DNA of 64,000 nucleotides from a virus. This document shows positions 5,242 to 64,000 of the stretch, piece by piece (positions within the stretch are counted from its first letter, which is position 1; the number at the start of each line of letters is the position of its first letter). The stretch covers positions 42,759 through 106,758 of the IMG/VR virus record IMGVR_UViG_3300009509_000004; one strand, 5' to 3'. The translations under genes and the position numbers were made by a program. The notes beneath the pieces were generated by a model. That model did no database searches. It had not been told where the DNA came from and worked only from the letters and a program-made list of their open reading frames with translations.

Positions 5242-7521
5242 TTAGCCTACAGACTCAAAGATGCCCTGCTTGCCGATGCGGATGATGAACCGCTCAACCG
5301 TGTCTGCGAGTCTGAGCTTGATCTCTGAGATCATGTCGCCGTTGGCCCGCGTTGCGTCGGTGTTCAATTCCTCATCCAACTTGATGATGCACGCTTCCTC
5401 AAACTTGGCACCTCTCAGCGCCCGCTTGGTGAACTCCGGCAAGAAGAATGACTTGAGAGCTGACAGCGCCAGCTTCTCAGTGACTGGATCGTTGATTGCG
5501 AACACAATCCAGTCAAAGCTCTCTTGGAGCACGTGCTCATAGTAGGACATCTGCTCACGCTGATGCTTCCACTTCCATGTGGGGTCTGTGTTGACCGTGC
5601 GGTCACCCCAGATGATGAAGTTGCCCTTGAGCTTCTTGATCACAGCGATGCCCGCTGGATTGAGCACTTCCTCGTTGAGCAAGGCATCCTTTGTCGGGAT
5701 GTCGAGCAACTTGGGCAACTTGGCATCTAGGCCAGCTTCAGCCTTGTGATAGCCATCATAGTCAGCTGCGATGCGCGCCTCTCGCCCATGGATCATGCCG
5801 GTGACCGGCACCAGCTTGGTCTTGCCCTCGCTGCTGAACGGATCGGGCACCTCACCGTAGCTGGGGAATGCCACGACAGCATAGTCAGACCGACCCAGCG
5901 TGTCATTGACCTGCGTCAATGCGCCATCCTCGGTGACCACGTTGTCAGGGATCTCGTATCTGAACTGGTGATTCTTGGCATCCGCAAATGCCACACCAGC
6001 TTTCTGGACTGCGGTGGAAGTGATGCCTGGGCACGCATACTTGATCAGGCCCATGTTCTTGCCGATGACTCGGTTGAATGGGCTGAGACCAACATCCCAC
6101 GCTTGCTGGATGTAGTCTGCATCGACCAAATCTGAAATGCCGTCCCTGCCGCCTTCCATCTCCAGCGGTGCCTCGACCATGAACTCATCTGCCGGTGCGC
6201 CGTCCACGGTGAGGTCAGAACCGTCTGCGACCGTGATGCTGTCATGGTCGTTGTCAACGATTCTGAATTTGGTGTTCTTGGCGTTGGGCTTGTCGGGGTA
6301 CAGATAACCGCCAATGAGCGCGTCAGGGGTGAATGGCTTGTAGTTGATGACCAGAGTGTCGCCCGCCGCAACCGCTGTGATGCCTGCGGTCACTGTGAAC
6401 TCAGGAGTCCACTTGTTGTTGGGGACAAATGCTACACCCAAAGTCACCGTGCCCAAAGCCCCAAACTTGTCACTCACAGCCGCGCCGCTCGTGGCATCGG
6501 CCATGGTGATGGTGATCTTCTGGGCCACCATATCATCGTCTGTGACGTCCAGCGCAAACGTGGGATCGCCCCCGCCAGCGCTGTTGACGGTGAAGTCATG
6601 GATGACTGCTGTGAGCACCGTTGCCGTCACGGTGTCGATGAGGCCCCAATGGTTGGCTGGCCGCACTGCTGCGGTGTGAGCGCCCGTCCAAAGATCGGTT
6701 GCCCAAATCTCATCGTTGCCGCCGTCCTTGTTGATGACATCCACCCAATAGCGTGGGTCATTCGGATCGGTGGCCAGATTGGCATACTTCTTGACAAAGT
6801 CGCCATCCACGTACACGCTGATGCTGAACTCGCTGTCAGCCTTTTCCTCGCCGTCACCGATGAGGATGCTCAGCGCCTTGCCCTCGTTTTCCAGCACGAG
6901 GTAATAGCGCAAGCTGCTGCCAGACAGCGCGTTGTAGTCATCGAGCATCGTTTGATCAGCTGCAACCGTGACGATGCCAGCATCGTCGTTGCCAACGATG
7001 GGATAGCGCTTGTTGGGTACATCTTCAAGCTCAACCCAACCGCCCTTCCACTCATCTGTCTTCATAGCCAGACCAGTGTCCAGGGTGATGTTGGTGAGAT
7101 CGCCGATTGCACTCATGTCATCTGTGAGCCGATTGAGCTTGCCGCCCCAGCGCCCGCCATTCTTGGCTTTCAACGTGCCCATCGGCGTGAGCAGCGAGCC
7201 ATAGCGCGCATACAGAGTCATCCCAGCGGCAAGCTCGTTGCCGTCTGTGACCCTGATGAGCATGAGACCACCAGCCCCGTTTGCCAGGTCATAGTAGTCA
7301 AAAGCGCAGTCAGGAAGCAAGGAATCAGGGATGATTCCACCACACTTCTTCTGGAACTGCTTTTTGTTTTGTGCGAAAATGAGCTCACCGACTGGGCCCT
7401 TTTCCATGACCCCAGCATAAGCCGCCCAACCAAGGGCACCTGGCTCAATGCCTTTTTCGCCTTCAAGCTCGATGATGGTGACGCCCGCGCCTCTTGTCGG
7501 GCCAAACCGCCGTTGTGCCAT
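5242..7521 (-). CDS. Contractile tail sheath protein
   Basis: 759 aa; N-terminal GVTIIE...KGPVGE; C-terminal IWGDRT...WIVFAIND...ERFIIRI. Confidence 0.92.
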   Translation of the reverse strand: MAQRRFGPTRGAGVTIIELEGEKGIEPGALGWAAYAGVMEKGPVGELIFAQNKKQFQKKCGGIIPDSLLPDCAFDYYDLANGAGGLMLIRVTDGNELAAGMTLYARYGSLLTPMGTLKAKNGGRWGGKLNRLTDDMSAIGDLTNITLDTGLAMKTDEWKGGWVELEDVPNKRYPIVGNDDAGIVTVAADQTMLDDYNALSGSSLRYYLVLENEGKALSILIGDGEEKADSEFSISVYVDGDFVKKYANLATDPNDPRYWVDVINKDGGNDEIWATDLWTGAHTAAVRPANHWGLIDTVTATVLTAVIHDFTVNSAGGGDPTFALDVTDDDMVAQKITITMADATSGAAVSDKFGALGTVTLGVAFVPNNKWTPEFTVTAGITAVAAGDTLVINYKPFTPDALIGGYLYPDKPNAKNTKFRIVDNDHDSITVADGSDLTVDGAPADEFMVEAPLEMEGGRDGISDLVDADYIQQAWDVGLSPFNRVIGKNMGLIKYACPGITSTAVQKAGVAFADAKNHQFRYEIPDNVVTEDGALTQVNDTLGRSDYAVVAFPSYGEVPDPFSSEGKTKLVPVTGMIHGREARIAADYDGYHKAEAGLDAKLPKLLDIPTKDALLNEEVLNPAGIAVIKKLKGNFIIWGDRTVNTDPTWKWKHQREQMSYYEHVLQESFDWIVFAINDPVTEKLALSALKSFFLPEFTKRALRGAKFEEACIIKLDEELNTDATRANGDMISEIKLRLADTVERFIIRIGKQGIFESVG

Positions 7522-7531
7522 GAGTGTCCTC

Positions 7532-8776
7532 CTAACTAATAACAGCGTTCATGTCGCCCGTCAAGTTCATTCTCTCAACGGCAAACACGTCTTCAGCTTC
7601 ACGTTCAAAGAATAACGCCTTGACGAGCAAAAAGCGAAGTCTCCCAGCATGTACTTCAGCGATATTGGCTTCAGTTTGGCCGTTGTATTCCTCAATCAGC
7701 CAAAGTCTGAACATTTCGTCAAGACCTTTTGATGTTATTGTTGGGTTATTTCTGAAAAACCGTTTCAGCTCGTCAGCCAATCTTACTTGGTCCCTTGCGC
7801 TGTCAGTTAGGCCATTGAGCACGACCTCGATGTCAGCTTGAAGTGGGCCTGGAACTTTGACTGCGCTCCTGTTAGACTTGTTGATCACCCAGTCATCTTG
7901 CCCACTTTCTGCAGAGTTGATTAGGTTGACATCTGTGAGAATCAAAGCTGGCACTTTGGCCACCTCGTGATACTCCTGGCCGGTGGTAACTGCCACCTCT
8001 GGTTCCCATATGAAGCGCACCCAAAGCAACTTCCCAGCAGCAATTGATGTGCTTAGTGTGATGATTTGGGTGTTTTGGTCATATGATTGATACAAGTCTG
8101 TGAAATGGTCAGGATCGTCCGTGTGATTGAAGCATGCATCAATCCCAACAACGTTGTATGGCGTTTCCAGCTTGTAATCATTCTTCAAGTCAATCGTAGC
8201 TGATGCGACATTGATCTTGATCGGGAAGTCTGAGATGGGTCTGACCTGCTCTCTCAGCTGCCTGACGATGGTCCTGTACACATAATCCTCTTGGTGTTCA
8301 ACGCTGGATGAATACAACACCTTGACAGCGCTGATCTCTGGCGTGACACCTCCGTCAGTCGTGTACGGGTTGAGGATCACCTGCAGCTTCTTGCTGGTGG
8401 CTGGGAAGTCTGCGATGTGATTGGCAACATCCGCCTCGCTGTTCCAATCCGACACATTGACCACCCAATCCGCGCCATCCCACCAATATTCATTTGTGCC
8501 GTCTGACAGCCTGAACTTGACTCCAGTCAGGTCTTGCCCAAGATCGTCCTTTGCGTTGACGACCTCGCACTCAAACCCAAGCCATTGTCGCACGCTGTCT
8601 GGGATGGTCACCCACGTCTTTGCATACAGGTCTGTGTCAAGTGGGTATCCGCCGCCGCCCTCTTTCAACTGAATCTTGTGCGTCTCTGGATTCAACCGCA
8701 CATCTGCGCCCAGCTCGATCCTGTAACGGTTGTCGTTGCTGAAGTTGAATCGCTTGATTAGCCTCTTGAGTCTCAT
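7532..8776 (-). CDS. Tail completion/terminator-like protein with N-terminal extension
   Basis: 414 aa immediately upstream of sheath; synteny. Confidence 0.5.
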   Translation of the reverse strand: MRLKRLIKRFNFSNDNRYRIELGADVRLNPETHKIQLKEGGGGYPLDTDLYAKTWVTIPDSVRQWLGFECEVVNAKDDLGQDLTGVKFRLSDGTNEYWWDGADWVVNVSDWNSEADVANHIADFPATSKKLQVILNPYTTDGGVTPEISAVKVLYSSSVEHQEDYVYRTIVRQLREQVRPISDFPIKINVASATIDLKNDYKLETPYNVVGIDACFNHTDDPDHFTDLYQSYDQNTQIITLSTSIAAGKLLWVRFIWEPEVAVTTGQEYHEVAKVPALILTDVNLINSAESGQDDWVINKSNRSAVKVPGPLQADIEVVLNGLTDSARDQVRLADELKRFFRNNPTITSKGLDEMFRLWLIEEYNGQTEANIAEVHAGRLRFLLVKALFFEREAEDVFAVERMNLTGDMNAVIS

Positions 8777-9402
8777 TGCGATGACAACTCCTTCATGGCC
8801 GCAGCCATCGCTTGGTCCCAGAACTTCCTTGCCATGGACTGCATCTCGCCTTTATTCCATGCTTGCCTGATGAATGGCCTGCCTGGGATGATGATTGCCT
8901 TTGTGCTTTCTTTCAGTGGACGCCAACCGCCTGGCATTTTGTCCCACAGCTCTTGCGCACGCTCGCTGAGGGCAATGGTTGGGTCCATCTCTTTGCGCCA
9001 TAGCACATAGAACATGCCACGCATCTTTGCCGTGACCCCGATGACTGTGCCCTCGTGGAGCATGACTGCCAAGTCATATTCCTTGTGCTTCTGCAGGATG
9101 CCCACAAACACTGTGATGTCGTCAATGACCTTGGATGTGATCGCCTTGAACAGAGGTGAGCCTGGCCTGTCGCCGATCAATGGTTCATTCTTGCCGCCCT
9201 TCAGGGCAACAGTGAGGGGTGCGTTTGGCTCAAAACTGCCTGACGCGATCTCCTGCCTGATCAGTGCCTCGCCCTTTTTGCCAATGAACTGGGACGCCCG
9301 CCTCAGATGCTTGCGCAACGTTGGTCGTACAACACCTGGCCCAAGCTGCTTCTCAAGCCGCTTCCAGCGCTTGTCCAGCTTGAATTTGGCTGCCCCTGGC
9401 AT
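8773..9402 (-). CDS. Neck/tail completion protein (virion morphogenesis family)
   Basis: Basic 209 aa; PNAPLTVALK, LHEGT, IPGRPFI motifs. Confidence 0.7.
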   Translation of the reverse strand: MPGAAKFKLDKRWKRLEKQLGPGVVRPTLRKHLRRASQFIGKKGEALIRQEIASGSFEPNAPLTVALKGGKNEPLIGDRPGSPLFKAITSKVIDDITVFVGILQKHKEYDLAVMLHEGTVIGVTAKMRGMFYVLWRKEMDPTIALSERAQELWDKMPGGWRPLKESTKAIIIPGRPFIRQAWNKGEMQSMARKFWDQAMAAAMKELSSQ

Positions 9403-9803
9403 CAGTCTTCAACCCCTCTCGATGGCGCTCTGTCTGTGAAATATGCCTTGACCAATGATGCGCCGTTTTGGTCAGGGTAGTGCCCAATTGGTTTCAAGGC
9501 AATGATGTAGACATCCGTGTCAAGGTGCCCCATCTTGATGAACCTGTCCTGCCTCTTGAGCGTGATCCCTTGGGCATTCAAGTCGATGTATCTGAACAAC
9601 ACATATCCAGACGCATCCTGCTCGACACCGCCCTTGGTGCTTGATGCTTCTTGCAAATCCCAATTGGGCTGCCCCTTCACCACCTTGGTCTCGACTCTGG
9701 CAGCCTGTTGGACAGGCTCCCTGAAGTCGTCATCATAGATGGTCTCACCCTCGCTCCATTGCTCGATTGTGATGTTGATCGGGTGGATGAGATTGGGCAA
9801 CAT
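9402..9803 (-). CDS. Head closure/stopper protein
   Basis: 133 aa beta-rich; YDDDFREP; synteny in neck module. Confidence 0.6.
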   Translation of the reverse strand: MLPNLIHPINITIEQWSEGETIYDDDFREPVQQAARVETKVVKGQPNWDLQEASSTKGGVEQDASGYVLFRYIDLNAQGITLKRQDRFIKMGHLDTDVYIIALKPIGHYPDQNGASLVKAYFTDRAPSRGVED

Positions 9804-9812
9804 GCGCGCCTC

Positions 9813-10922
9813 CTACCTGAATGAAGGATGCGCTGGGGTTGCGCAACCGATTGGTGCCCTGTACATCTTGATGATCTCGATGATCTCTTGATCGTCAGTG
9901 ATGCCAGCCATGTACGGTGAGCGCTCGCTTACCTCTGCCCCTGTTTTGCCATACTTGATCTTGTGCCCATCAGTCCACTCTTCAAGCACATCTCCGATCA
10001 CTGGTGGAGGTGGCGTTGGCGGATCTGATGGATCAGCCAAGTAGATGGGTGACTTGGTCAGCTTTTCGATGACCAACTTGAGCAGCGCCCGCTGGATGAG
10101 CTTGGGCACACTCATGTCCTCTTCAACAAATCCAAACGTGCCCTTGACCTCTTGGTTTTGCCTCCCTTTGTCAAACCACAGCCTGCCAATCCTGATTGGC
10201 GCTGTGTAGATGTCCCTGTACTCTGTTGGCCCAACCAACTTGATGCGCGGGTTGCGCCTGTCGTCAGGGTATCTGATGCCGTTGTAGACCTTGTACAGCT
10301 CTGCGTCAAGCTCAGATGGGTCTCTGTTCAGCTTCACATAGTCGATGCTGATGATCGGCACGCCAAAGTGAAGCGCATCTGAGTCAGTCCCATCAATGGA
10401 CAAGATCATTGACTTTGGGATGAACCACTGACGGCACGCCCTTTCCAAGAACGCCTGCCATGTCTCGATGTAGGACAAGACAAGCGTGTCTGGGAATTTG
10501 GTTGTGTCTGTGAGGCCTGCGTCACGCACATCCTGGATGTTGATGTATGTGTCAACGGTTGAACCCGCTGACTGGACCAACACCTCAAAGTCCTCTTGCC
10601 CAGCTTGGTATGGCGCACCAGCGCTGATCTTCCAGCGCCATTCAATGCGGTGTGTGCCTATGGGCTCTGTAAGCTCTGGTGTCCAGCCCTTTGCTGCCGC
10701 ATTGTCATATGCGAAATATGACCCAACACCAAAGTGCCCAGCGCCGCTGCCAACAGGCTCATAGCCACCACCAGATGGGAACACTTGAACGCCAGGCAGA
10801 CCTCCTGTGATGTCAAAAATCCTGAATCCAACTTCATAGGCATCAGTCAGGACGCCATTGACGGTGATGAACCAATTCAGGATCGCCTGTGTGTTCTCCT
10901 GTCCTCTGGAGAGTGCTGGCAT
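9813..10922 (-). CDS. Head-tail adaptor with N-terminal Ig-like domain
   Basis: YINIQDVR...FLERACRQWF...VKGTFGF...VPKLIQRA adaptor pattern. Confidence 0.65.
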   Translation of the reverse strand: MPALSRGQENTQAILNWFITVNGVLTDAYEVGFRIFDITGGLPGVQVFPSGGGYEPVGSGAGHFGVGSYFAYDNAAAKGWTPELTEPIGTHRIEWRWKISAGAPYQAGQEDFEVLVQSAGSTVDTYINIQDVRDAGLTDTTKFPDTLVLSYIETWQAFLERACRQWFIPKSMILSIDGTDSDALHFGVPIISIDYVKLNRDPSELDAELYKVYNGIRYPDDRRNPRIKLVGPTEYRDIYTAPIRIGRLWFDKGRQNQEVKGTFGFVEEDMSVPKLIQRALLKLVIEKLTKSPIYLADPSDPPTPPPPVIGDVLEEWTDGHKIKYGKTGAEVSERSPYMAGITDDQEIIEIIKMYRAPIGCATPAHPSFR

Positions 10923-10934
10923 GTTGGCCTCCTG

Positions 10935-11714
10935 TTACAGCACGCCCATCCAGAAGCTCTTTGTGGTCTGTTTCCAGCCTTCAAACTCTTCAGGCGCACT
11001 CTTGTTGACTTCAAATTCCTCAATCCCCTTCTTGACCTTGTCACCGCAAGCCTTCTCAGCAGCCTTCTTGGGCTTCTGAGCAGCCGCGCTGCTGGGCAAG
11101 TTGGTCTTGGCAGCCGCCTCCAGCTTGCGTTTGGCCTCAGCCATTGCGCTTGCAGGGAGATCTGACTGTGACAACCTCGCCAGCGCGTTGCGCAGATGCG
11201 GCAGGTCAACCTTGCCATTGGCATCCTTGAACGGCAGCTTGCGCAACGACCTCGGCACCGTCTTGCCATCCTTGTCTTTCTTGCCGCCAGGCAAGATGAC
11301 CGCGAATGACGAGTCAGGCAGGTCATTGATCGCTGCAGCGGTCCAAACCGCCTTCTCAACATCGACGCCCTTGGTCACGCTCATGTCACTCTTGGGCTTG
11401 AAGCTCGTGACTCGCTCCACCTCGATGACTCCGCCAAATTCAAAATCACCACTCTTGTTGCGAGTGTATTTGAATGCGAAGTGCTTGGTTGGCTCCTGCC
11501 CCTTGTAGGTGGAGAACACCGCACGATCCTGGAACGCCTCGACCAGCCATGCTCCACCATCCTTCTCTGTGATGTTGAGCTTGCGCAGGACGTGAGCACG
11601 CCCCGCTTGACTCAACTTGTTGGTGAACATGTTGATCGACTCGCCCTTCATCATGGGCACGTTTTGCTTATGGACGATGACCTCCATGGTCGTTGTCTCT
11701 TGCGCGTCAGCCAT
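10935..11714 (-). CDS. Hypothetical head-associated protein; C-terminus KSFWMGVL matches the scaffold
   Basis: Start reassigned to ATG 11714 (AGGAGG RBS); INDLPDSSFA...KVDLPHLRNALARL domain. Confidence 0.7.
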   Translation of the reverse strand: MADAQETTTMEVIVHKQNVPMMKGESINMFTNKLSQAGRAHVLRKLNITEKDGGAWLVEAFQDRAVFSTYKGQEPTKHFAFKYTRNKSGDFEFGGVIEVERVTSFKPKSDMSVTKGVDVEKAVWTAAAINDLPDSSFAVILPGGKKDKDGKTVPRSLRKLPFKDANGKVDLPHLRNALARLSQSDLPASAMAEAKRKLEAAAKTNLPSSAAAQKPKKAAEKACGDKVKKGIEEFEVNKSAPEEFEGWKQTTKSFWMGVL

Positions 11715-14642: not shown

Positions 14643-15331
14643 GGCTGAATCTCCTTTGCGAACATCAGGATGGATGCATGTTCCAACTTGGACAAATCAT
14701 CCCTGACTGTCGCCTTCACATAGTCATCCGTCGCAAATGTGCCTTGCTTCCTGAGAATCAGCCCACCAACTCCAAAGTAGCCTTTGACCACATTGGGGCT
14801 TGCCACGATCACTTCAAAGCCGCCTGGTGCCGCGTCCTGCAATACCTCCCTCGTGCGTCTCAAATTGGTGATTTGGTACACAACGTCACCGGCCTTGATC
14901 TCGATGAGCATCCCATTGGGCAACGTCGTCTCACCCATGAAATTCTCGCCAAACTTGATGCTGCCGTCCTCAAGGATCAGACTGAGCGCCGATGTCTCAA
15001 CATCGTAGGTCGCCCCTGGTGACCACGAATACACAACTGGAGTTGTGCTACCGTCAACCGCCATCTCGTTTGTCGGGGTTGTGTCTTCCAGGTATGCGAT
15101 GATCGCCCCAGCGCCCGCTGTTGAGATCTGTGCATCGACCAACAACCTGTTTGCGTTGTTGACACCTGCCAACCTGACCCCAGCGCCGTCCCTGATTTTG
15201 ACCTCAGTGGCGGCACCTCCTGCTGGGGTGGACACCGCCACTGCCAACTTGTAAACACCGCCATCCAGGATGACGTTGACAGGGTTTCCCGCCGCATCAT
15301 ACAGTATGGCAGCTGGTGATTCGCCCGCCAT
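14639..15331 (-). CDS. Putative virion structural protein
   Basis: 230 aa; MAVDGSTTPVVY motif; coupled with neighbours. Confidence 0.6.
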   Translation of the reverse strand: MAGESPAAILYDAAGNPVNVILDGGVYKLAVAVSTPAGGAATEVKIRDGAGVRLAGVNNANRLLVDAQISTAGAGAIIAYLEDTTPTNEMAVDGSTTPVVYSWSPGATYDVETSALSLILEDGSIKFGENFMGETTLPNGMLIEIKAGDVVYQITNLRRTREVLQDAAPGGFEVIVASPNVVKGYFGVGGLILRKQGTFATDDYVKATVRDDLSKLEHASILMFAKEIQP

Positions 15332-47181: not shown

Positions 47182-47297
47182 GTCCGTTCTCCTTTGTTTG
47201 GTGTTTGCCCTCACCATCTAATACAATTATAGTTGGCTTGCTTCCAGAAGTCAAGAAAAAAACGACCTTGGAGGCAACTTTTTTTGTCTCCACGTCC
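47179..47297 (-). promoter_or_regulatory. Early module 2 (terminator hairpin + TTGACT-17-TATAAT + leader)
   Basis: -35 at 47254-47249, -10 at 47231-47226. Confidence 0.88.
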
Positions 47298-48974: not shown

Positions 48975-49068
48975 CCACCTCCTTGACGATGTGTGTTTTT
49001 TATACACACACCTGCCCGTGGCCGCCTGGCTGGGCAGCCGCCTGCGCGCCCCGCTGCCGCCGCCGTGC

Positions 49069-49245
49069 CTACTGGCGGTGTGGCGGCTTGACCCGCTTGA
49101 CCTTGCCCGCCTTGGTGTTGCGGGAGTGGTTGGCCTTTGAGCGGGAAAAAAGGGTGCGGCAGAATCCGTCGTTGCGGTCGTTGTAGCTGCCGACCTCGAT
49201 GAAAAGCGCCTTGCGGATGGAGATCTGATTTGCGTTGTTGGTCAT
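49069..49245 (-). CDS. 58-aa basic early protein (below ORF-track cut-off)
   Basis: MTNNANQISIRKALFIEVGSYNDRNDGFCRTLFSRSKANHSRNTKAGKVKRVKPPHRQ directly after the module 4 RBS. Confidence 0.6.
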   Translation of the reverse strand: MTNNANQISIRKALFIEVGSYNDRNDGFCRTLFSRSKANHSRNTKAGKVKRVKPPHRQ

Positions 49246-49343
49246 GTCCGTTCTCCTTTGCCCTATTCTTCAATTATAGTTGGCTTGCTTCCAGAAGTCA
49301 AGAAAAAAGTTGCCTTGGGGCCAATTTTTTTTGACCCCAAGGC
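49243..49343 (-). promoter_or_regulatory. Early module 4
   Basis: -35 at 49301-49296, -10 at 49278-49273; 13-bp upstream stem. Confidence 0.88.
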
Positions 49344-49355
49344 GTGACACCTCCC

Positions 49356-49583
49356 TCAATAGACGATCCAACCCCGCCCCATGTTGTCCCTGCGTCGTGG
49401 GATGTCCTCTGCCGGCACGTCCAACTTCCCTGCGTACACCCCGACCATCAGCGGATCGTCGCAGACGATCCCAACACAAGTGGAACCGTACATACAACGC
49501 CCCGAATATGTTGGGCGCACGCTCGCCTCGTATCCGTCTGACTCCAACGCCTCCACGATTTTCTCTGCTTGCTCCAACGTCAT
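49356..49583 (-). CDS. Conserved small phage protein (YSGRxMYGxxC)
   Basis: Motif; GGAGAACGG RBS. Confidence 0.7.
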   Translation of the reverse strand: MTLEQAEKIVEALESDGYEASVRPTYSGRCMYGSTCVGIVCDDPLMVGVYAGKLDVPAEDIPRRRDNMGRGWIVY

Positions 49584-49596
49584 GTCCGTTCTCCTT

Positions 49597-49902
49597 TCAA
49601 TCCAAAGTGAAGCGCACGACCCAGCCTGAACCGTGCGCGGCGTGAGTGTATTGAACGGGTGCGCTCGCCTGCCGTAGCTGACCGCCGTGGAGGTGGTGGA
49701 AGTAGGGTTGCCGGATGAGCGCCCTCAAAACCACCTCCTGGACCTTCCTGATGTCCTGGAAGTCTGCTGGCGAGTCTGCGAGCACGGTGACCTCTGCTCC
49801 GATGACCTGATATGGGTCGTGCTGGCGACCTCTCGCTGCCGCTTTGACCATTAGACTGGGCCTGAACCCAGCCTTGATCGGATTTTGGTGGATGACCTTC
49901 AT
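49597..49902 (-). CDS. Hypothetical protein
   Basis: 101 aa; ATGA overlap. Confidence 0.55.
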   Translation of the reverse strand: MKVIHQNPIKAGFRPSLMVKAAARGRQHDPYQVIGAEVTVLADSPADFQDIRKVQEVVLRALIRQPYFHHLHGGQLRQASAPVQYTHAAHGSGWVVRFTLD

Positions 49903-50084
49903 TCTCGCTTCCCCTCGACCTCGACTGAGAATTTCAACTCAATGTCGTATCCGTTCTCAGGATTTTCGTGAACAAAATCGACCATTTCCTTGAGCGCTTC
50001 CATTGCCTCCTGCCAGGAAAGATCCCGATCTGTACACCGACCGTCCACCCAAAATTCCACTTTTTTCAGTAGTTTTGTCTTCAT
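49899..50084 (-). CDS. 61-aa hypothetical protein
   Basis: MKTKLLKKVEFW...; GGAGAACGG RBS. Confidence 0.6.
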   Translation of the reverse strand: MKTKLLKKVEFWVDGRCTDRDLSWQEAMEALKEMVDFVHENPENGYDIELKFSVEVEGKRE

Positions 50085-50097
50085 TGCCCGTTCTCCC

Positions 50098-50577
50098 TTA
50101 GCTGCTTGCCAAGCCAAAAAATACAAAAACTTTGCCGTGTCGCCCCGCCATCCCGTAGCGCTTTTTGTACTCGACCGTTGCGCTGTAGCCCAACTCGATG
50201 GCGAGCGCTGGCCCCCACTTGTCGTTGTAGCGCCTGGCGTGACTGAGCGCCCAGGTGCGATACTGCTTGGGAACCTGACGGATGAAATTGCGCTTGGCCT
50301 CTTTGTCGTCTGAATCCGACTCCTGGAAGAATGCCGCCGCCTCGATCCAACCGATGGCCTTGCCGACCTTGACCTGCTTGTTGGGAAGCTGGATGAGGGT
50401 GTAACCGTGCTTGGAAGCGATGTCGCCGCTGTAGCTGTAGAGATCCTCATCGCAAGCGTCGTATCCGTCGCAAGCCATATCCGCCCGCCTCTCGCTGGCC
50501 GCCTGGTCTTGCGCGTTGCGGAAAGCCGCCCCGATGTCTTTGCCAAATGCCGTCGTTGAGAATTCACATGCGCCCAT
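50098..50577 (-). CDS. Conserved phage hypothetical protein
   Basis: MGACEF...AF..A...YSGDIASK...KWGPALAI...FFGLAS. Confidence 0.75.
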   Translation of the reverse strand: MGACEFSTTAFGKDIGAAFRNAQDQAASERRADMACDGYDACDEDLYSYSGDIASKHGYTLIQLPNKQVKVGKAIGWIEAAAFFQESDSDDKEAKRNFIRQVPKQYRTWALSHARRYNDKWGPALAIELGYSATVEYKKRYGMAGRHGKVFVFFGLASS

Positions 50578-50682
50578 TTCCGTTCTCCTTTTGTTTGCCC
50601 TATTCTTCAATTATAGTTGGCTTGCTTCCAGAAGTCAAGAAAAAAACGACCTTGGAGGCAACTTTTTTTGTCTCCAAGGTCG
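50575..50682 (-). promoter_or_regulatory. Early module 5
   Basis: -35 at 50638-50633, -10 at 50615-50610; CGACCTTGGAG/CTCCAAGGTCG stem followed by T7. Confidence 0.88.
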
Positions 50683-50692
50683 CCATCTCCCC

Positions 50693-51028
50693 TCACTCTC
50701 CTTTCACAAACCAATCGACAGGGGCAAGCCCCAAGTATCCGTTCAGCCGCTCAAATACCTCGTTGGCGTCCAAGCAACCCTCGATCCGACTCCGCACCGC
50801 CTCCACGAAACACCGCGCCCCGATTGTCGAGACAACGCCGTTGAGAATCAGCCAACGGCCATCAGCGATCTCGATCTCCACCATCTTCCCATCTTCCTCA
50901 AATAGAATCTGGGCAGCTGTCTCGCCCTCGCCCACCTCCCACGTATAGTGGGCACCCTCGCCATCGCCGTCCACGAAAAACCCAGCAACGATGGCTCTCT
51001 TGGTCTCTTTGATTTTCTTCTTCATCAT
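50693..51028 (-). CDS. Hypothetical protein
   Basis: GGAGAACGG RBS; after module 6. Confidence 0.6.
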   Translation of the reverse strand: MMKKKIKETKRAIVAGFFVDGDGEGAHYTWEVGEGETAAQILFEEDGKMVEIEIADGRWLILNGVVSTIGARCFVEAVRSRIEGCLDANEVFERLNGYLGLAPVDWFVKGE

Positions 51029-51140
51029 CCGTTCTCCTTTCAAGTTGGTATGCCGTCCAACCATACTTCAATTATAGTTGACACCCCCGACTATTTTTGG
51101 TCCATTTTGCAGGTTGGAGGCAATTTTTTTTGTCTCCACG
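51026..51140 (-). promoter_or_regulatory. Early module 6 (degenerate -35, intact TATAAT and leader)
   Basis: -10 at 51076-51071. Confidence 0.6.
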
Positions 51141-51373
51141 TACTTTTTTTGAGAGCCAATTTTTTTTTGCCTCCACGTTCTTTTTCTCTTGACTTCTGCT
51201 CCCCAATTTTCTCAATTTCCAAAGTCTATTGAATAGATTGCGGAGAACCCACGCCCGCTTGGCTCGTTTGCGTCGTGCCTCTCGCTCAAGCCCCGCTTGG
51301 ATATGCTCCACCCATGCCGCTCGATGTGGGTTTTCTTGGCTCTGCCGATCTTGCAATTGCGGAAAGCCACGTC

Positions 51374-51433
51374 AAAAAAAGTTGGCTCTGAAGTCTCTTT
51401 TTTCTTGACTACAACTTCTTTTGGCGTTATACT
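51374..51433 (+). promoter_or_regulatory. Plus-strand promoter of the same family (A7 GTTGG...TTTTTTC TTGACT-17-TATACT)
   Basis: -35 at 51405-51410, -10 at 51428-51433. Confidence 0.8.
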
Positions 51434-51439
51434 ATACTT

Positions 51440-51580
51440 GCGGGGTGTATGCTGCATTCGCGTGCTACCGTTTGCCTGAACCTTCTAACGCGCCGCGTTA
51501 GAGCAAGGCAGATCTCCCCCTTCCTCCCCAGCGGTGCTGGTAGGTACCAGTACTGTCCTGGATGTGCTTCCACCTGCTCC
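51440..51580 (+). ncRNA. Putative structured small RNA
   Basis: Follows the plus-strand promoter; no ORF; stems 51471-51512 and 51531-51556 with G-U pairs valid only on + strand; C-rich linker. Confidence 0.55.
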
Positions 51581-51792
51581 TACGGCAGAACGTGGACCAC
51601 GGTGAAGCCTCTCGACTGCGCCGTGGCCTTGGCCTGCTGGCGTGCCTCGGTGAAGGTGCCGGTGAAGCTGACCCAATTATCCATGTTGTCTGGATCGTCG
51701 CCCAGAGCGAACATCCACGCCCCAAAACCCTTGGGTTGCTTCATGTGACTGCGGAAGAATGCTGCGGTTTCAACTGATACTCTCTTTGCCAT
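51580..51792 (-). CDS. Conserved small phage protein (SHxKxPxGxGxWxF)
   Basis: Motif; after module 7. Confidence 0.75.
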   Translation of the reverse strand: MAKRVSVETAAFFRSHMKQPKGFGAWMFALGDDPDNMDNWVSFTGTFTEARQQAKATAQSRGFTVVHVLP

Positions 51793-51885
51793 GTCCGTTC
51801 TCCTTTGCCCTATTCTTCAATTATAGTTGGCTTGCTTCCAGAAGTCAAGAAAAAAACGACCTTGGAGCCAACTTTTTTTGACCCA
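51790..51885 (-). promoter_or_regulatory. Early module 7
   Basis: -35 at 51848-51843, -10 at 51825-51820. Confidence 0.88.
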
Positions 51886-51913
51886 CCACTTCCACTGAGC
51901 AATGCCCTGAACA

Positions 51914-51947
51914 GAAAAGTAGGAGTGCCCCACAACGGGGCACTCCT
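51914..51947 (-). terminator. Intrinsic terminator
   Basis: AGGAGTGCCCC-GTTGT-GGGGCACTCCT-ACTTTTC. Confidence 0.7.
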
Positions 51948-51977
51948 TGGGCAAATGGAGAACGGATGACGATCTGG

Positions 51978-52586
51978 TCAGCGCTGATCTGTCTTCAAGA
52001 TCCCAAAGCGCTGCGTGAGCTTGTATTCATCGATGAGCTGATCTGCGATGTCCTTGTTGCCCAGCTCTTGGGCAAGCATCGTCAGCACCAACCCGATGAT
52101 GTTGTGCGTGTAGTTGCCATTCTGTTGGAGTGCTCGCCTGATGCGCGATCTCGCCTTGGTGACTGCTTCTGGCTCGTTGTCCGGCACCTTGTCGCAGATG
52201 CACTCGACCCTGCCGCAGATCTCACAAAGTGGGCGTGGGGCTGGCTTTTCCGATTTGCTGGGTGCCTTCTTGGCCTCCCTCGCTGCCTCCCCTGCCGCCT
52301 CTCGTGTTTTCGATTTGATCTTGACCTTCCCCTTGGGCTTGGTCTGCTTTTTGCCTCCTTGCTGTGTTTCTGCGTGCTGGCCCTCGCTGGGTGCCTCTGG
52401 TGCCGTGTAGCCTTTCTCTCTGATGTCGCCGTGAGCTTCGCAATCTGGATTGCGACAGAATGCGTATGGGTCAGACTTCTTGACTGACCTGTACTTGCCT
52501 GCCGCCTGAAGCTCTGGGTCTGGCATGTGCTTGAAGAGAATCTTGCCGCACGCGGGACAAGGTGGCTGTTTTGGTCTGCCTGCCAT
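51978..52586 (-). CDS. Zn-finger early protein
   Basis: CPAC...CRNPDC and CEIC..CIC; AGGAGG RBS. Confidence 0.7.
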   Translation of the reverse strand: MAGRPKQPPCPACGKILFKHMPDPELQAAGKYRSVKKSDPYAFCRNPDCEAHGDIREKGYTAPEAPSEGQHAETQQGGKKQTKPKGKVKIKSKTREAAGEAAREAKKAPSKSEKPAPRPLCEICGRVECICDKVPDNEPEAVTKARSRIRRALQQNGNYTHNIIGLVLTMLAQELGNKDIADQLIDEYKLTQRFGILKTDQR

Positions 52587-52598
52587 GGTAGCCTCCTG

Positions 52599-53183
52599 TT
52601 ATGCCCGCTCGATGACGGTTGCTAGGTTGAAAAGTGCCTCGCTGATTTCGCTGCGCCCCTTGACCTCTGCGACCTCTGCGAGACTGAGGGTGCGCTCGAT
52701 GGCGCTGTCCCTGTCGTAACTGAACTGCTGCGTTTGCGCGACTTGAAGCGCCTTGTCGGTGTACTCTTTGGCCGTCGTGAACTCGTGACCGTTGAGCGCC
52801 CGCTCGATGACCTGAAGCGCCTCTTGAACGATGTGGACGGTGACCTTGCCGTAGCTGGTGCTGCGACGGTTGCCTGCGTAGGTGGTGCGCGTCCAAACCT
52901 GGTAGCCCTTTGCGCGCTTGATTTGCTGGGCCTGCTCCCAAAGCTCCTTTGCGATGGCCCAAGTGAAAGTGACCTCGGTGATCTCGACTGCCGACTTGAC
53001 AAACGCCTTGCTTTCGCCGTGTCGGGTGCTGGCCCCGCCGTTGCGCGCTTCCTTGGCGCTGCTTACCTCGCCCCAACACCGCACGATGGCTTCTGGCTTG
53101 GCGCGAAAGTCGATGGCCTGAACGATGTACTTGCGACCCGTTGCTTTGACTTCTGCGATGCGTTCTTTTCTGATTGGCTTCAT
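52599..53183 (-). CDS. Early hypothetical protein
   Basis: 194 aa after module 8. Confidence 0.7.
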   Translation of the reverse strand: MKPIRKERIAEVKATGRKYIVQAIDFRAKPEAIVRCWGEVSSAKEARNGGASTRHGESKAFVKSAVEITEVTFTWAIAKELWEQAQQIKRAKGYQVWTRTTYAGNRRSTSYGKVTVHIVQEALQVIERALNGHEFTTAKEYTDKALQVAQTQQFSYDRDSAIERTLSLAEVAEVKGRSEISEALFNLATVIERA

Positions 53184-53278
53184 TCCCGTTCTCCTTTGCC
53201 CTATTCTTCAATTATAGTTGAAGCCAATCCAGAAGTCAAGAAAAAAGTTGCCTTGGAGGCAATTTTTTTTGGCCCCTC
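53181..53278 (-). promoter_or_regulatory. Early module 8
   Basis: -35 at 53239-53234, -10 at 53216-53211. Confidence 0.85.
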
Positions 53279-53513
53279 ATCCGATGTTGATTTTCTTGAG
53301 CCTCTCAATGGGCACCCTGTCATTCGGATCGCCGTTCAACTCGATCTCTGTCGGGATGTCAATGCCAATCTCGTTGAACACGATGTGTCGCATCTCAAAC
53401 CCGCTGATCCGCCCCTCACGCTGGATGCCTTCTGAAGTCTCCAATCGCACAAACTCGCCAACTGAGTTGACCAGCTCGTCAATCCATTTCCCTGTCTCGC
53501 TCTTGTTCGCCAT
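53277..53513 (-). CDS. Sm/Hfq-like fold protein (candidate)
   Basis: Helix then VRLETSEGIQREGRISGFEM (Sm1-like) and VPIERLKKI (Sm2-like); AGGAGG RBS. Confidence 0.5.
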   Translation of the reverse strand: MANKSETGKWIDELVNSVGEFVRLETSEGIQREGRISGFEMRHIVFNEIGIDIPTEIELNGDPNDRVPIERLKKINIG

Positions 53514-53718
53514 TTTTTGCCTCCTGTGGTTCTGCGCAGTCAATGCTGCAAAATTTTTTGGTTTTGGGCACGTCAGCGCCGCACCTGACGCATCGTCCAA
53601 GCCTGAAAAATGAGATCGCACCTGCCTTCAACAGCTCACTGAATGCAGACCTCTCTGCTGTGGTCATGTATTCTTTCTTGGGGTCAAACCGCCACAGCGT
53701 TGTCTGCTTCAATCCCAT
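53479..53718 (-). CDS. Zn-ribbon protein (CxxCG...FCSxxC)
   Basis: CVRCGADVPKTKKFCSIDC. Confidence 0.55.
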   Translation of the reverse strand: MGLKQTTLWRFDPKKEYMTTAERSAFSELLKAGAISFFRLGRCVRCGADVPKTKKFCSIDCAEPQEAKNGEQERDREMD

Positions 53719-54257
53719 CAACTGCCCTCCTTTGCCGCCCAATCCACCCCCATGTAGCAGATCTTTGGCGCGTTCTCAAGATGCACCATGGCGATGCCCA
53801 ATTTGGCCGCTGACTCCAATGCCCACCTCGCCTTGTCTCCGTCGTGCTGTGGGTCTTTGTATTGCTCCGCATACACAACCCGCTTGATTCTGGCATTGAT
53901 GATAACGCCCATACAGTTGCGACATGGGCTTGCTGATGTGTACATCGTTGTGTCTGCCGTGGAAGCGCCCATCACGCCTGCTTGGATGATCGCGTTGATT
54001 TCTGCGTGGACGCATCGGATGCAATGTCCACCTTCCATTTCACATCCAGCGTCCAAACAATGGACAAGTCCCTCTGGTGATCCGTTGTACCCTGTGGAGA
54101 CAATGTGGCCGTCCCTGACCAAGACAGCCCCGACCTTCCTGCGCTTGCAAGTAGCTCTTGAAGCAACCGCCTGAGCAATCGCCATGAAGTATTCATCCTT
54201 GCTTGGTCGCACAGCTTCGCCTCCTTGACTCGACTCCAAAATTGGTGCGCCTTCCAT
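53718..54257 (-). CDS. dCMP deaminase
   Basis: RATC.RRKVGA, TGYNG, HAEINA, PCRNC. Confidence 0.92.
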   Translation of the reverse strand: MEGAPILESSQGGEAVRPSKDEYFMAIAQAVASRATCKRRKVGAVLVRDGHIVSTGYNGSPEGLVHCLDAGCEMEGGHCIRCVHAEINAIIQAGVMGASTADTTMYTSASPCRNCMGVIINARIKRVVYAEQYKDPQHDGDKARWALESAAKLGIAMVHLENAPKICYMGVDWAAKEGS

Positions 54258-61882: not shown

Positions 61883-62955
61883 TTGTTCGCCTGCTCGACC
61901 TCCTTGAGCAGCTTCTGGGCAAGCGCCTCGTTGCTTCTCAAGTTGTCTGCCGCCGATGCCAAGCCCTGGCCCAGCCTGTCATCTCCCCAGGCATACCAGG
62001 AGCCTGATCTTGTTACAATCCCATCAGCCGTTGCCTGCTCTATGAGCGCTGCCTCCTTGTCGATGCCCTTGCCATAGATGATCTCGCACTGCGCCTTTCT
62101 GAATGGCGGTGCGATCTGGTTCTTTTTGCAATGCACCTCGATCTTGTTGCCAATCTTCTGGCCGTCCTTGACATTTGACGCTCGCCTGCCCACGTCCATG
62201 ATCAGGCTGGCATAGAACTTGGGAGCGTTGCCCCCAGCGATCTCGTTGTCATCGCCAAACATCACGTTCATCTTCTTGCGCACCTGGCTGATCCACAACA
62301 GCGCAACATCCTCCTTGGATATTTTGGGCATGAGCTTGGGCAACAATTCTGAATACACCCTCGCCTGGGGTGCCATGTGTTTGTCTTCCCACTCGCCCTC
62401 ATATTGCGCTTTGGTGATCGCTGCGTTCATCGAGTCCAAGACGATGAGGATGGGGACACGCTTGCCTCCCTCCCTCAATTTGGCCGCCCGATCAATGACG
62501 CCTTCAAACGTCTGGAATGCTCGCTCCAGATATGGTGGTTGTGCTATCACCAGGCTGCTTGTGTCAACGCCGATGTTCGCAGCATATTCTGGATCCAGTT
62601 TGTACTCTTTGTCCAGGTACACCGCCACCCCACCAAGCCTTTGAGTCTCAGCCACGATGTGGAGCGCAAGCGTTGTCTTGCCGCTGCCTTCAGCCCCGTG
62701 GATGATCGTCAACCTGCTTCTTGGGATGCCCCCACGACCAATTGCTGCGTCAATCGTGGGGCATTGCGTGGAAATCACGCCCTTGATTTTGATGGCCAGA
62801 CCGTCAGACCCAAGCAGCTGAGCACCACCCTCGCCGACAGCTTCCAATATGCCTTCAAGAACACCTTGTGCATAATTGGACTGCTTGATCGGTGAGGGTG
62901 GGTGCTCGCTGGCCTTGGCCTTGGCCTTGACCTTCACTTGGTTGGTCTTGGCCAT
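61870..62955 (-). CDS. recA: RecA recombinase
   Basis: GAEGSGKTT, LDS, QVR, GGNAPKFYAS, KNQIAPPF, YGKGID. Confidence 0.93.
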   Translation of the reverse strand: MAKTNQVKVKAKAKASEHPPSPIKQSNYAQGVLEGILEAVGEGGAQLLGSDGLAIKIKGVISTQCPTIDAAIGRGGIPRSRLTIIHGAEGSGKTTLALHIVAETQRLGGVAVYLDKEYKLDPEYAANIGVDTSSLVIAQPPYLERAFQTFEGVIDRAAKLREGGKRVPILIVLDSMNAAITKAQYEGEWEDKHMAPQARVYSELLPKLMPKISKEDVALLWISQVRKKMNVMFGDDNEIAGGNAPKFYASLIMDVGRRASNVKDGQKIGNKIEVHCKKNQIAPPFRKAQCEIIYGKGIDKEAALIEQATADGIVTRSGSWYAWGDDRLGQGLASAADNLRSNEALAQKLLKEVEQANKWER

Positions 62956-62960
62956 CACTC

Positions 62961-64000
62961 TCAACCTTTTGCTTTCGCCTTGCCCTTCTTGCCCTTGGAG
63001 ATTTTGGTCAGCTCATCGTCAAGAGCATCCAACCCCAGCTCGTCATCGTCATCGTCGCTGGGCTTGGGTTTCTTGGCCTTCACCACCTTGGGCTTGTCTG
63101 CAGGCTTTTTGTTTTTCTTGGGCGGTGGAGGTGGCTCATCATCTTCATCCTCGTCATCGCCCTCTTCATCCTCGTCATCGCTGTCGTCATCGTCGTCATC
63201 GTCGTCAGCGTCGTCATCGTCGTCAGCGTCGTCATCATCCTCTTCATCGTCATCGTCGCTGTCGTCGTCATCGTCGCTGTCGTCACCGTCGTCATCTTCC
63301 TCCAGCTCATCTTCATCGTCGCTGTCGTCAGTGCCTTCGGTGTCGTCATCCTCATCCCAATCGCCCTCTTCATCATCGTCACTTTCCTCAACCTTCACAC
63401 CGCTGAGGATTGCCTCGATCTCCGATGGCGCTTTGATGAGGTTAGCCATGACCTTGAACAGATCGCAGTCACCGCCCTCGACCATGGCCGCCTCGATGCG
63501 CTTGCGCAATTTTGGCGGCAACTTGAATGGCTTTCTGAGCGTTTCAACGTCAGCCGTCACCTTGTAGCGGGTGTCATTCTTGCCCTTGCCCTCTCTGTGG
63601 ACCATGGCCAAGATCGCCCCATCCATATCGGTGATGTCGCCAGCTTCGATGAACAACTCCATGATGCCGTCATAGATGGTCTTGCCGACCATTGCGACAG
63701 ATGGCTTCCCTGGCAGCTTGCGCCATTCCTCAGCCTTGCTGCCCCGATGCTTGAGCGGGGTGATGCCCCACAGGAAGCGTTGCTGCCTGCGCGACTCGTC
63801 AGCCTCTGCCTCTGACATCTTGCCACTGTCCATTGCCTCTGCCAACGGACACTTCCCTGTGAGCTTGATCTTGCGCTTCTTGAGAAACGCCTTCACAAAT
63901 GGGTGCTCCACAATCGGGTTGGCAGCTGGGTCAAGTGACACAACCATGGCGTTGTTCTGACCAACCCCATAGTGCACTGCCGCCTCGATGTAGTTGGTGC
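62961..64000 (-). CDS. Putative single-stranded DNA-binding protein with long acidic tail (5' end off window)
   Basis: Frame open to window edge; CPL, ITD...G...REGKGKNDTRY.V pattern of gp32-like phage SSBs; next to recA. Confidence 0.6.
   Translation of the reverse strand, partial: TNYIEAAVHYGVGQNNAMVVSLDPAANPIVEHPFVKAFLKKRKIKLTGKCPLAEAMDSGKMSEAEADESRRQQRFLWGITPLKHRGSKAEEWRKLPGKPSVAMVGKTIYDGIMELFIEAGDITDMDGAILAMVHREGKGKNDTRYKVTADVETLRKPFKLPPKLRKRIEAAMVEGGDCDLFKVMANLIKAPSEIEAILSGVKVEESDDDEEGDWDEDDDTEGTDDSDDEDELEEDDDGDDSDDDDDSDDDDEEDDDDADDDDDADDDDDDDDSDDEDEEGDDEDEDDEPPPPPKKNKKPADKPKVVKAKKPKPSDDDDDELGLDALDDELTKISKGKKGKAKAKG
63137..63387. repeat. Low-complexity (TCG/TCA)n tract encoding poly-Asp/Glu
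   Basis: Direct reading of the sequence. Confidence 0.85.

Follow-up and report, generated by a model that had tools for sequence, protein, structure and literature searches.

A flipped half of an early promoter cassette as a candidate source of cis-antisense RNA in an uncultured phage

What might a promoter do that points against every gene of the genome in which it lies? The question is raised by a short stretch of the window, by which we mean the whole 64,000 nucleotides analysed, the final 64 kb of the 106,758-bp IMG/VR record of an uncultured phage. The record is entered with direct terminal repeats, and the window has genes for a tape-measure protein, a portal and a large terminase; the 107-kb genome is siphovirus-like. 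Every long non-overlapping open reading frame (ORF) lies on the minus strand, C exceeds G on the plus strand genome-wide, and a scan for tRNA and tmRNA genes found none. At about 45.6-53.3 kb, small orphan genes are preceded on the minus strand by near-identical early promoter modules of sigma-70 type, which run from an A-tract, a box and a T-tract through TTGACT, 17 nt and TATAAT into a leader with GGAGAACGG. The pattern TTGACT-N16-18-TATAMT has eight matches in the window, against 0.01 expected by chance, and the match at 51405 is the sole copy on the plus strand. A preliminary description took this copy to drive a structured, C-rich non-coding RNA through ORF-free DNA; the sequence features that it reported are real, its account of them was partly wrong, and its interpretation is partly supported. 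An extra minus-strand copy of the module lies outside the window, ~70 kb from the main array (G000:C1:16601-16629; TTGACT-17-TACAAT, with the same A7, box and T7 upstream).

The promoter and the genes that it faces comprise the following features:

51371-51404, plus strand: upstream element of A7, GTTGGCTC box and T6, before the -35; the upstream half of an early module, copied in inverted orientation
51405-51433, plus strand: core promoter of sigma-70 type, TTGACT-17-TATACT, with a predicted start near G51440
51212-51457, minus strand: 81-aa ORF, within which lie the plus-strand promoter and nt 1-18 of the predicted plus-strand transcript
51580-51792, minus strand: 70-aa early gene with a canonical leader (codon z 3.65)
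51820-51882, minus strand: canonical early module, matching 11 of 12 consensus positions, which drives the 70-aa gene from a predicted start near 51813

The two hexamers, a -35 at 51405-51410 and a -10 at 51428-51433, match the consensus at 10 of 12 positions, and their 17-nt spacer falls within the 16-18 nt of sigma-70 promoters. The A7, box and T6 upstream, which together look like an UP element, are 84-89% identical over 37 nt to five minus-strand modules, and in the 40-nt arm 51371-51410 the complementarity to 51843-51882 of the next early module is 88%. Both the core promoter and its kinship with the early modules had been proposed beforehand, and both hold. The further claim, that this is the only plus-strand promoter in 64 kb, stands for promoters of the module type and fails for promoters generally: a consensus scan of the whole genome gives two plus-strand matches of at least 10/12, the 51405 promoter included, of which the other, at window position 15276, lacks the module's upstream element, and a 9/12 match lies at window position 47205.

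The plus-strand copy has the A7, box, T-tract and -35 of the phage's early cassette and not its spacer, leader or gene; downstream, the leader with GGAGAACGG, its start codon and a gene are absent, and the plus-strand ORF found there scores as non-coding (codon score -0.28). Similarity to the module, 88% upstream, drops to one matching position out of 17 in the spacer, and still the -10 beyond it is close to consensus; if that -10 is taken to be independent of the module, a hexamer this good would turn up at 16-18 nt with a probability of 0.006, which speaks for the antisense reading set out below. The -10 together with the next TTG resembles the module's own -10 region, and it may have been inherited from the module and not selected. 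Two other degenerate module copies nearby each lack one hexamer; the copy at 51405 alone retains both at the correct spacing.

The DNA around this promoter is not free of ORFs. Promoter and start site both lie inside the 81-aa minus-strand ORF, whose codon periodicity is gene-like: its codon score of 0.297 (other frames: -0.59 and -0.29) is above those of all 267 off-frame ORFs of the same strand and all 2000 dinucleotide shuffles (z 3.4, where accepted small neighbouring genes have z 3.65-4.9), and codons 29-81, which lie outside the module, have z 2.8. In a protein collection it appears as a called gene on four contigs. It has no clear Shine-Dalgarno site, as is also the case for 17 of the 58 long genes here, no Pfam or PHROG match, and no relative but itself among 5.8 billion proteins; a remote HMMER match among 1.84 billion representatives, covering 22 residues of a 1421-aa tandem-repeat protein, was judged to be chance, with six repeats inflating the score. 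The ORF is likely to be a gene or a recent pseudogene, and since it lacks both a Shine-Dalgarno site and homologs, it may not be expressed.

The product of the 70-aa gene likewise has no relative but itself among the 5.8 billion proteins; three contigs besides this genome encode the 70-aa and 81-aa proteins in identical form. Its module is convergent with the plus-strand promoter and supplies the second arm of a 40-nt inverted repeat (51371-51410 / 51843-51882), in which both -35 elements face inward and the 432 nt between the arms hold the gene. On the far side of the 81-aa ORF, a listed 123-aa ORF (50693-51064) probably has its true start at 51028, giving 111 aa after a canonical GGAGAACGG leader; the 111-aa gene's own module has a good -10 and no -35, and expression of the gene may rely on transcripts that read through from the 51848 promoter. 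Plus-strand ORFs of 99 aa (at 51449), 59 aa, 60 aa and 173 aa were rejected as coding, with codon scores of -0.25 to -0.73.

The reading that we place foremost, at somewhat less than even confidence, is that the inverted half-copy of the early cassette fires convergently with the next early promoter, yielding a cis-antisense RNA whose targets are the 81-aa ORF, at its start, and the 70-aa gene. The promoter would have arisen when the upstream half of an early cassette (A-tract, box, T-tract and -35) was inverted and joined to a spacer of its own and a good -10. Host sigma-70 RNA polymerase would fire it early, from a start that we infer to lie near 51440, and the transcript would oppose all of the phage's genes. 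Over its first 18 nt it would be complementary to the beginning of the 81-aa ORF, presenting the anti-start-codon in the exposed loop of a first hairpin; the next 122 nt would be complementary to an untranslated spacer, and what follows to the whole 70-aa gene and its leader. The promoter would meet the strong early promoter at 51848 head-on, the predicted starts at 51440 and 51813 being 373 bp apart. The 70-aa / 81-aa unit would then probably be expressed at a lower level, and the downstream 111-aa gene perhaps too, either through polymerase collision or through RNA-RNA pairing that blocks translation or recruits RNase III, both of which we draw by analogy from P22 sar, lambda OOP and the antisense promoters mapped in lytic phages with genes on one strand. 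The RNA would gain stability in its 5' part from three plus-strand hairpins, and its C-rich tract would simply mirror a run of purines in the mRNA.

The geometry of this arrangement is that of antisense RNAs of the sar/OOP kind, with position 51440 inside 51212-51457 and the predicted transcript passing onward into 51580-51792, both on the minus strand. Because the transcript would start inside one minus-strand ORF and enter another, a cis-antisense role needs fewer assumptions. The second of these overlaps had been anticipated, as read-through antisense to the gene at 51580-51792, and the coordinates agree: the predicted transcript is fully antisense to that gene.

The 5' part of the predicted RNA contains four elements:

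51444-51469, plus strand: hairpin 1, with a 7-nt loop at 51453-51459; -10.5 kcal/mol on the plus strand and -3.6 on the minus
51470-51513, plus strand: hairpin 2, with an 8-bp outer stem (arms 51470-51477 / 51506-51513), internal loops and a 9-bp core round a perfect palindrome at 51484-51502
51513-51529, plus strand: C-rich, all-pyrimidine linker of 17 nt, containing CCUCC
51531-51556, plus strand: hairpin 3, whose 11-bp stem includes three G-U pairs and is not followed by a U tail

The nested hairpin, the linker and the 11-bp stem with its three G-U pairs were all described beforehand, and all are present and predicted to form. In the loop of hairpin 1, CAU at 51455-51457 complements the 81-aa ORF's start codon, and the loop has a probability of 0.91-0.98 of being unpaired in predicted transcripts of 120-560 nt. 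Hairpin 2 reaches -19.3 kcal/mol (z -4.48) on the plus strand and -16.9 (z -2.26) on the minus; hairpin 3 reaches -15.6 (z -4.25) and -6.4 respectively. Among the pyrimidine tracts of both strands of the 106,758-bp genome the linker is the longest, and it is predicted to lie between two stable stems, with a mean unpaired probability of 0.66-0.86, at every transcript length folded. Against shuffles, the 141-nt fold has z -3.18 on the plus strand and 0.07 on the minus, which bears out the plus polarity proposed earlier, and the minus-strand spacer RNA is unstructured (z -0.39). The advantage of plus over minus, 10.6 kcal/mol, falls in a 3% tail, the minus strand being as a rule the better-folding one in this genome. 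That all three hairpins are stabler on the plus strand, with this asymmetry and an anti-AUG loop so consistently unpaired, favours the antisense reading.

Judged against the genome's own 141-nt windows, the plus-strand fold has a raw percentile of 3.2, which becomes 7.6 once GC is adjusted for; hairpin-2-grade stability is common in 44-nt windows (~92 on the plus strand, about one per kb), and hairpin 3 is one of 12 comparable 26-nt hairpins on the plus strand genome-wide. The shuffle scores and these genome-wide comparisons together back the plus polarity and make the structure, taken alone, no more than moderately unusual; this modest rank weakens the antisense reading. So does the want of a terminator-defined 3' end: no stem with a U-run occurs on the plus strand between 51440 and the next terminator-like site, at 53536, and hairpin 3, whose 3' tail is not U-rich, is not listed as a terminator. 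Two other roles for the structure were considered and rejected. For an operator at the palindrome, which occurs once in the genome, the half-site is found nowhere else there; a Rho-loading site is contradicted by an excess of C over G that is not sustained past the linker.

In the collections searched, no homolog of the RNA, the flanking genes or the promoter module was found. An Rfam scan of 49000-54000, with E up to 10, gave only noise and no family match in 51440-51580, its one overlap at the promoter being a low-scoring minus-strand microRNA model far below the cut-off. No match came from blastn against 50,697 phage records, with either the region or a structural block as query, from protein-anchored IMG/VR scans that used the 70-aa and 202-aa neighbours, or from a JGI metagenome scan with the 70-aa protein. 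By exact scan the 19-nt palindrome is absent from IMG/VR, and its lone metagenome match has unrelated flanks and was set aside as chance; the 29-nt module core is absent from IMG/VR and from 185,579 genomes, and a degenerate pattern of the box is absent from IMG/VR. Through the terminase, four relatives (G001-G004) were found at 60-75% identity, none of which has the RNA, the 70-aa gene or a 170-aa gene; these closest relatives have other DNA at the corresponding position. A single-sequence covariance model built on hairpins 1-3 gave no hit in these four, its best foreign match having E 1.1. The module pattern has matches among them in G001 and G002 only, which need 2 mismatches and have no TTGACT -35. 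G004, a complete and collinear 105-kb genome, has 3.3 kb where the present phage has 7.4 kb, and has no copy of the plus-strand promoter, the RNA or the neighbouring genes; it carries a four-copy, 45-nt promoter-like repeat of its own (L028, 40001-60000, at 6927-11210) with a related box, A6-GTTGGC...CAAGG, one copy of which, at 6973-7004, points the other way from the rest. On this comparison the element is located in a hyperplastic, lineage-specific region. RNAs of the sar/OOP kind combine a defined 3' end with a co-conserved target; here there is no terminator and no homolog was found of RNA or targets, which again weakens the antisense reading.

Further copies of parts of the module lie around the site, two of them in the 551-bp gap 51029-51579:

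51159-51255, plus strand: degenerate module with a dead -10
near 51071-51110, minus strand: degenerate module with a dead -35
51950-51968, plus strand: copy of the early leader, GGGCAAA-T-GGAGAACGG-ATG

At window positions 51115-51255 there are two tandem plus-strand copies of the box with a 37-nt period, a plus-strand TTGACT at 51190 whose -10 is ruined, and a GGAGAAC that resembles the leader but lacks a start codon. Plus-strand terminator-like hairpins with T-runs occur at 51115-51138 and 51310-51331, upstream of the plus-strand promoter, where no plus-strand transcript is expected. The leader copy at 51950-51968 opens the 173-aa plus-strand ORF, which is antisense to the 202-aa gene and non-coding (codon score -0.27); on the minus-strand mRNA it reads as an anti-leader in the 3' UTR.

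These copies look like the scars of cassette recombination, by analogy with the PeSL cassettes of T4-type phages, and since plus-strand fragments of the module occur both in 51029-51579 and near 51950, the promoter itself may be such a scar, which counts against the antisense reading. It would then be a flipped, leftover half-module with no selected function, although it might still fire as tolerated, pervasive antisense transcription. We regard this as doubtful taken by itself and nearly as likely as the antisense reading. The two degenerate copies in the gap, the leader copy and the 40-nt inverted repeat round 432 bp all accord with it, as do the plasticity of the region, evident in the comparison with G004, where a box has also been flipped once, and a fold that is unremarkable against the genome background. 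There is precedent too, in that the PeSL composites of promoter and stem-loop in T4-type phages are documented to mediate the gain, loss and shuffling of small orphan genes (PMC2839356, PMC4122927). The present modules resemble them in being near-identical early promoters with stem-loops between small orphan genes of a hyperplastic region; unlike them, they belong to a siphovirus-like 107-kb phage, are unrelated in sequence, and include an inverted half-copy that has kept its hexamers, and a term search of PMC2839356 found no mention of antisense-facing PeSLs. Against mere debris stand both hexamers, intact at an exact 17-nt spacing despite an unrelated spacer sequence, the preference of all three hairpins for the plus strand, and the position of the genome's longest pyrimidine tract exactly at the site.

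That same tract, with its CCUCC, mostly unpaired between stable stems at any transcript length, is what could recommend a discrete RNA acting in trans, pairing with Shine-Dalgarno sequences of phage or host in the manner of RsaE and RoxS, the C-rich sRNAs of Firmicutes (PMC6158497, PMC5419742). RsaE too has one C-rich motif that lies unpaired with a stem on either side and that binds Shine-Dalgarno regions (PMC6158497), so that the likeness extends in principle to pairing with G-rich sites. We nevertheless consider a trans-acting sRNA unlikely, and the RsaE/RNAIII-like identity first suggested for the RNA is not supported: unlike RsaE and RoxS it matches no Rfam model, has one C tract in place of repeated motifs, lacks a terminator and shows no specific target complementarity. 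Target prediction with the linker and its flanks against 192 phage start regions did no better than shuffled linkers (z +0.69), in a test that covered phage start regions only; pairing with the shared early leader was weaker than average, at -14.7 kcal/mol against a mean of -17.6 over the start regions, with 5 contiguous bp by eye. The plus strand is moreover C-rich genome-wide, and no homologs were found. It is quite unlikely that an early, sigma-70-driven RNA, its 3' end processed at hairpin 3, serves as a broad decoy or blocker in trans of host or phage Shine-Dalgarno sites, a role that, if true, would amount to RNA-based translational shut-off by a lytic phage via the CCUCC core of the 16S anti-Shine-Dalgarno sequence. 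If the element is read from the other strand, the purine-rich complement and the palindromic hairpin might form an intercistronic signal for ribosome loading or processing between the 70-aa and 81-aa frames; the stretch does fall between the stop codon at 51580 and the start codon at 51457, the tract there is a very strong Shine-Dalgarno-like run, and hairpin 2 forms on the minus strand too (-16.9 kcal/mol). This is very unlikely all the same, with a spacer RNA no more structured than shuffles (z -0.39 and 0.07), hairpins 1 and 3 that largely fail on that strand, and a purine tract that stops 55 nt before the start codon, or ~17 nt even with hairpin 2 formed. Highly improbable, finally, is an inversion at the DNA level of the 432-bp segment with the 70-aa gene, by which its orientation and expression would vary in the population: the repeat arms, 88% complementary over 40 nt and each ending at an inward -35, invite the idea, but they are short and imperfect, and no recombinase gene was identified near them.

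The antisense reading has its closest formal parallels in two RNAs of temperate phages. The sar RNA of P22 is complementary to the start region of ant and the OOP RNA of lambda to the end of cII, acting through pairing and RNase III cleavage, and both are discrete RNAs of about 70-77 nt with terminators of their own. The RNA proposed here would share with them a short antisense product of a promoter convergent with an early promoter and complementary to a neighbouring gene; it differs in having no terminator, no lysogeny context seen and no sequence similarity. Both are listed among phage regulators (PMC5415839). Twenty antisense RNAs with a defined start have been mapped in five of six Pseudomonas phages, and phages of the LUZ19 type have a conserved antisense promoter in the early region (PMC10914365); such RNAs in other lytic phages with genes on one strand favour the antisense reading. 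As in the LUZ19 type, a lone promoter in or near the early region here faces a one-directional genome, and its transcript would be antisense to phage genes. The LUZ19 promoter, however, has been mapped experimentally, uses the phage's own polymerase and is conserved across its genus, whereas the present one is a predicted promoter of the host sigma-70 type and is absent from the relatives.

Should the promoter fire, the phage would be reusing a flipped early cassette to restrain one of its early transcription units, and cassette-mediated shuffling of genes would be linked to the birth of antisense regulators. Phage antisense promoters and RNAs are already documented, and the present case, for which no homolog was found, is a modest lead that opens no long-standing question. 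The region should in any event not be filed as an ORF-free sRNA gene or as an RsaE-like regulator.

Some minor observations concern the wider window. An Sm/Hfq-like identity for the minus-strand ORF 53277-53621 was rejected, since Pfam gave no match for it up to E 1. Window positions 62768-62955 contain the genome's most stable 141-nt folds, on both strands and down to -76.5 kcal/mol; only a weak 16-nt inverted repeat was found there (62783-62798 / 62949-62964). Within the early cassette array itself, window positions 49013-49185 have a GC content of 0.67-0.72 and very stable plus-strand folds of -65 to -70 kcal/mol.
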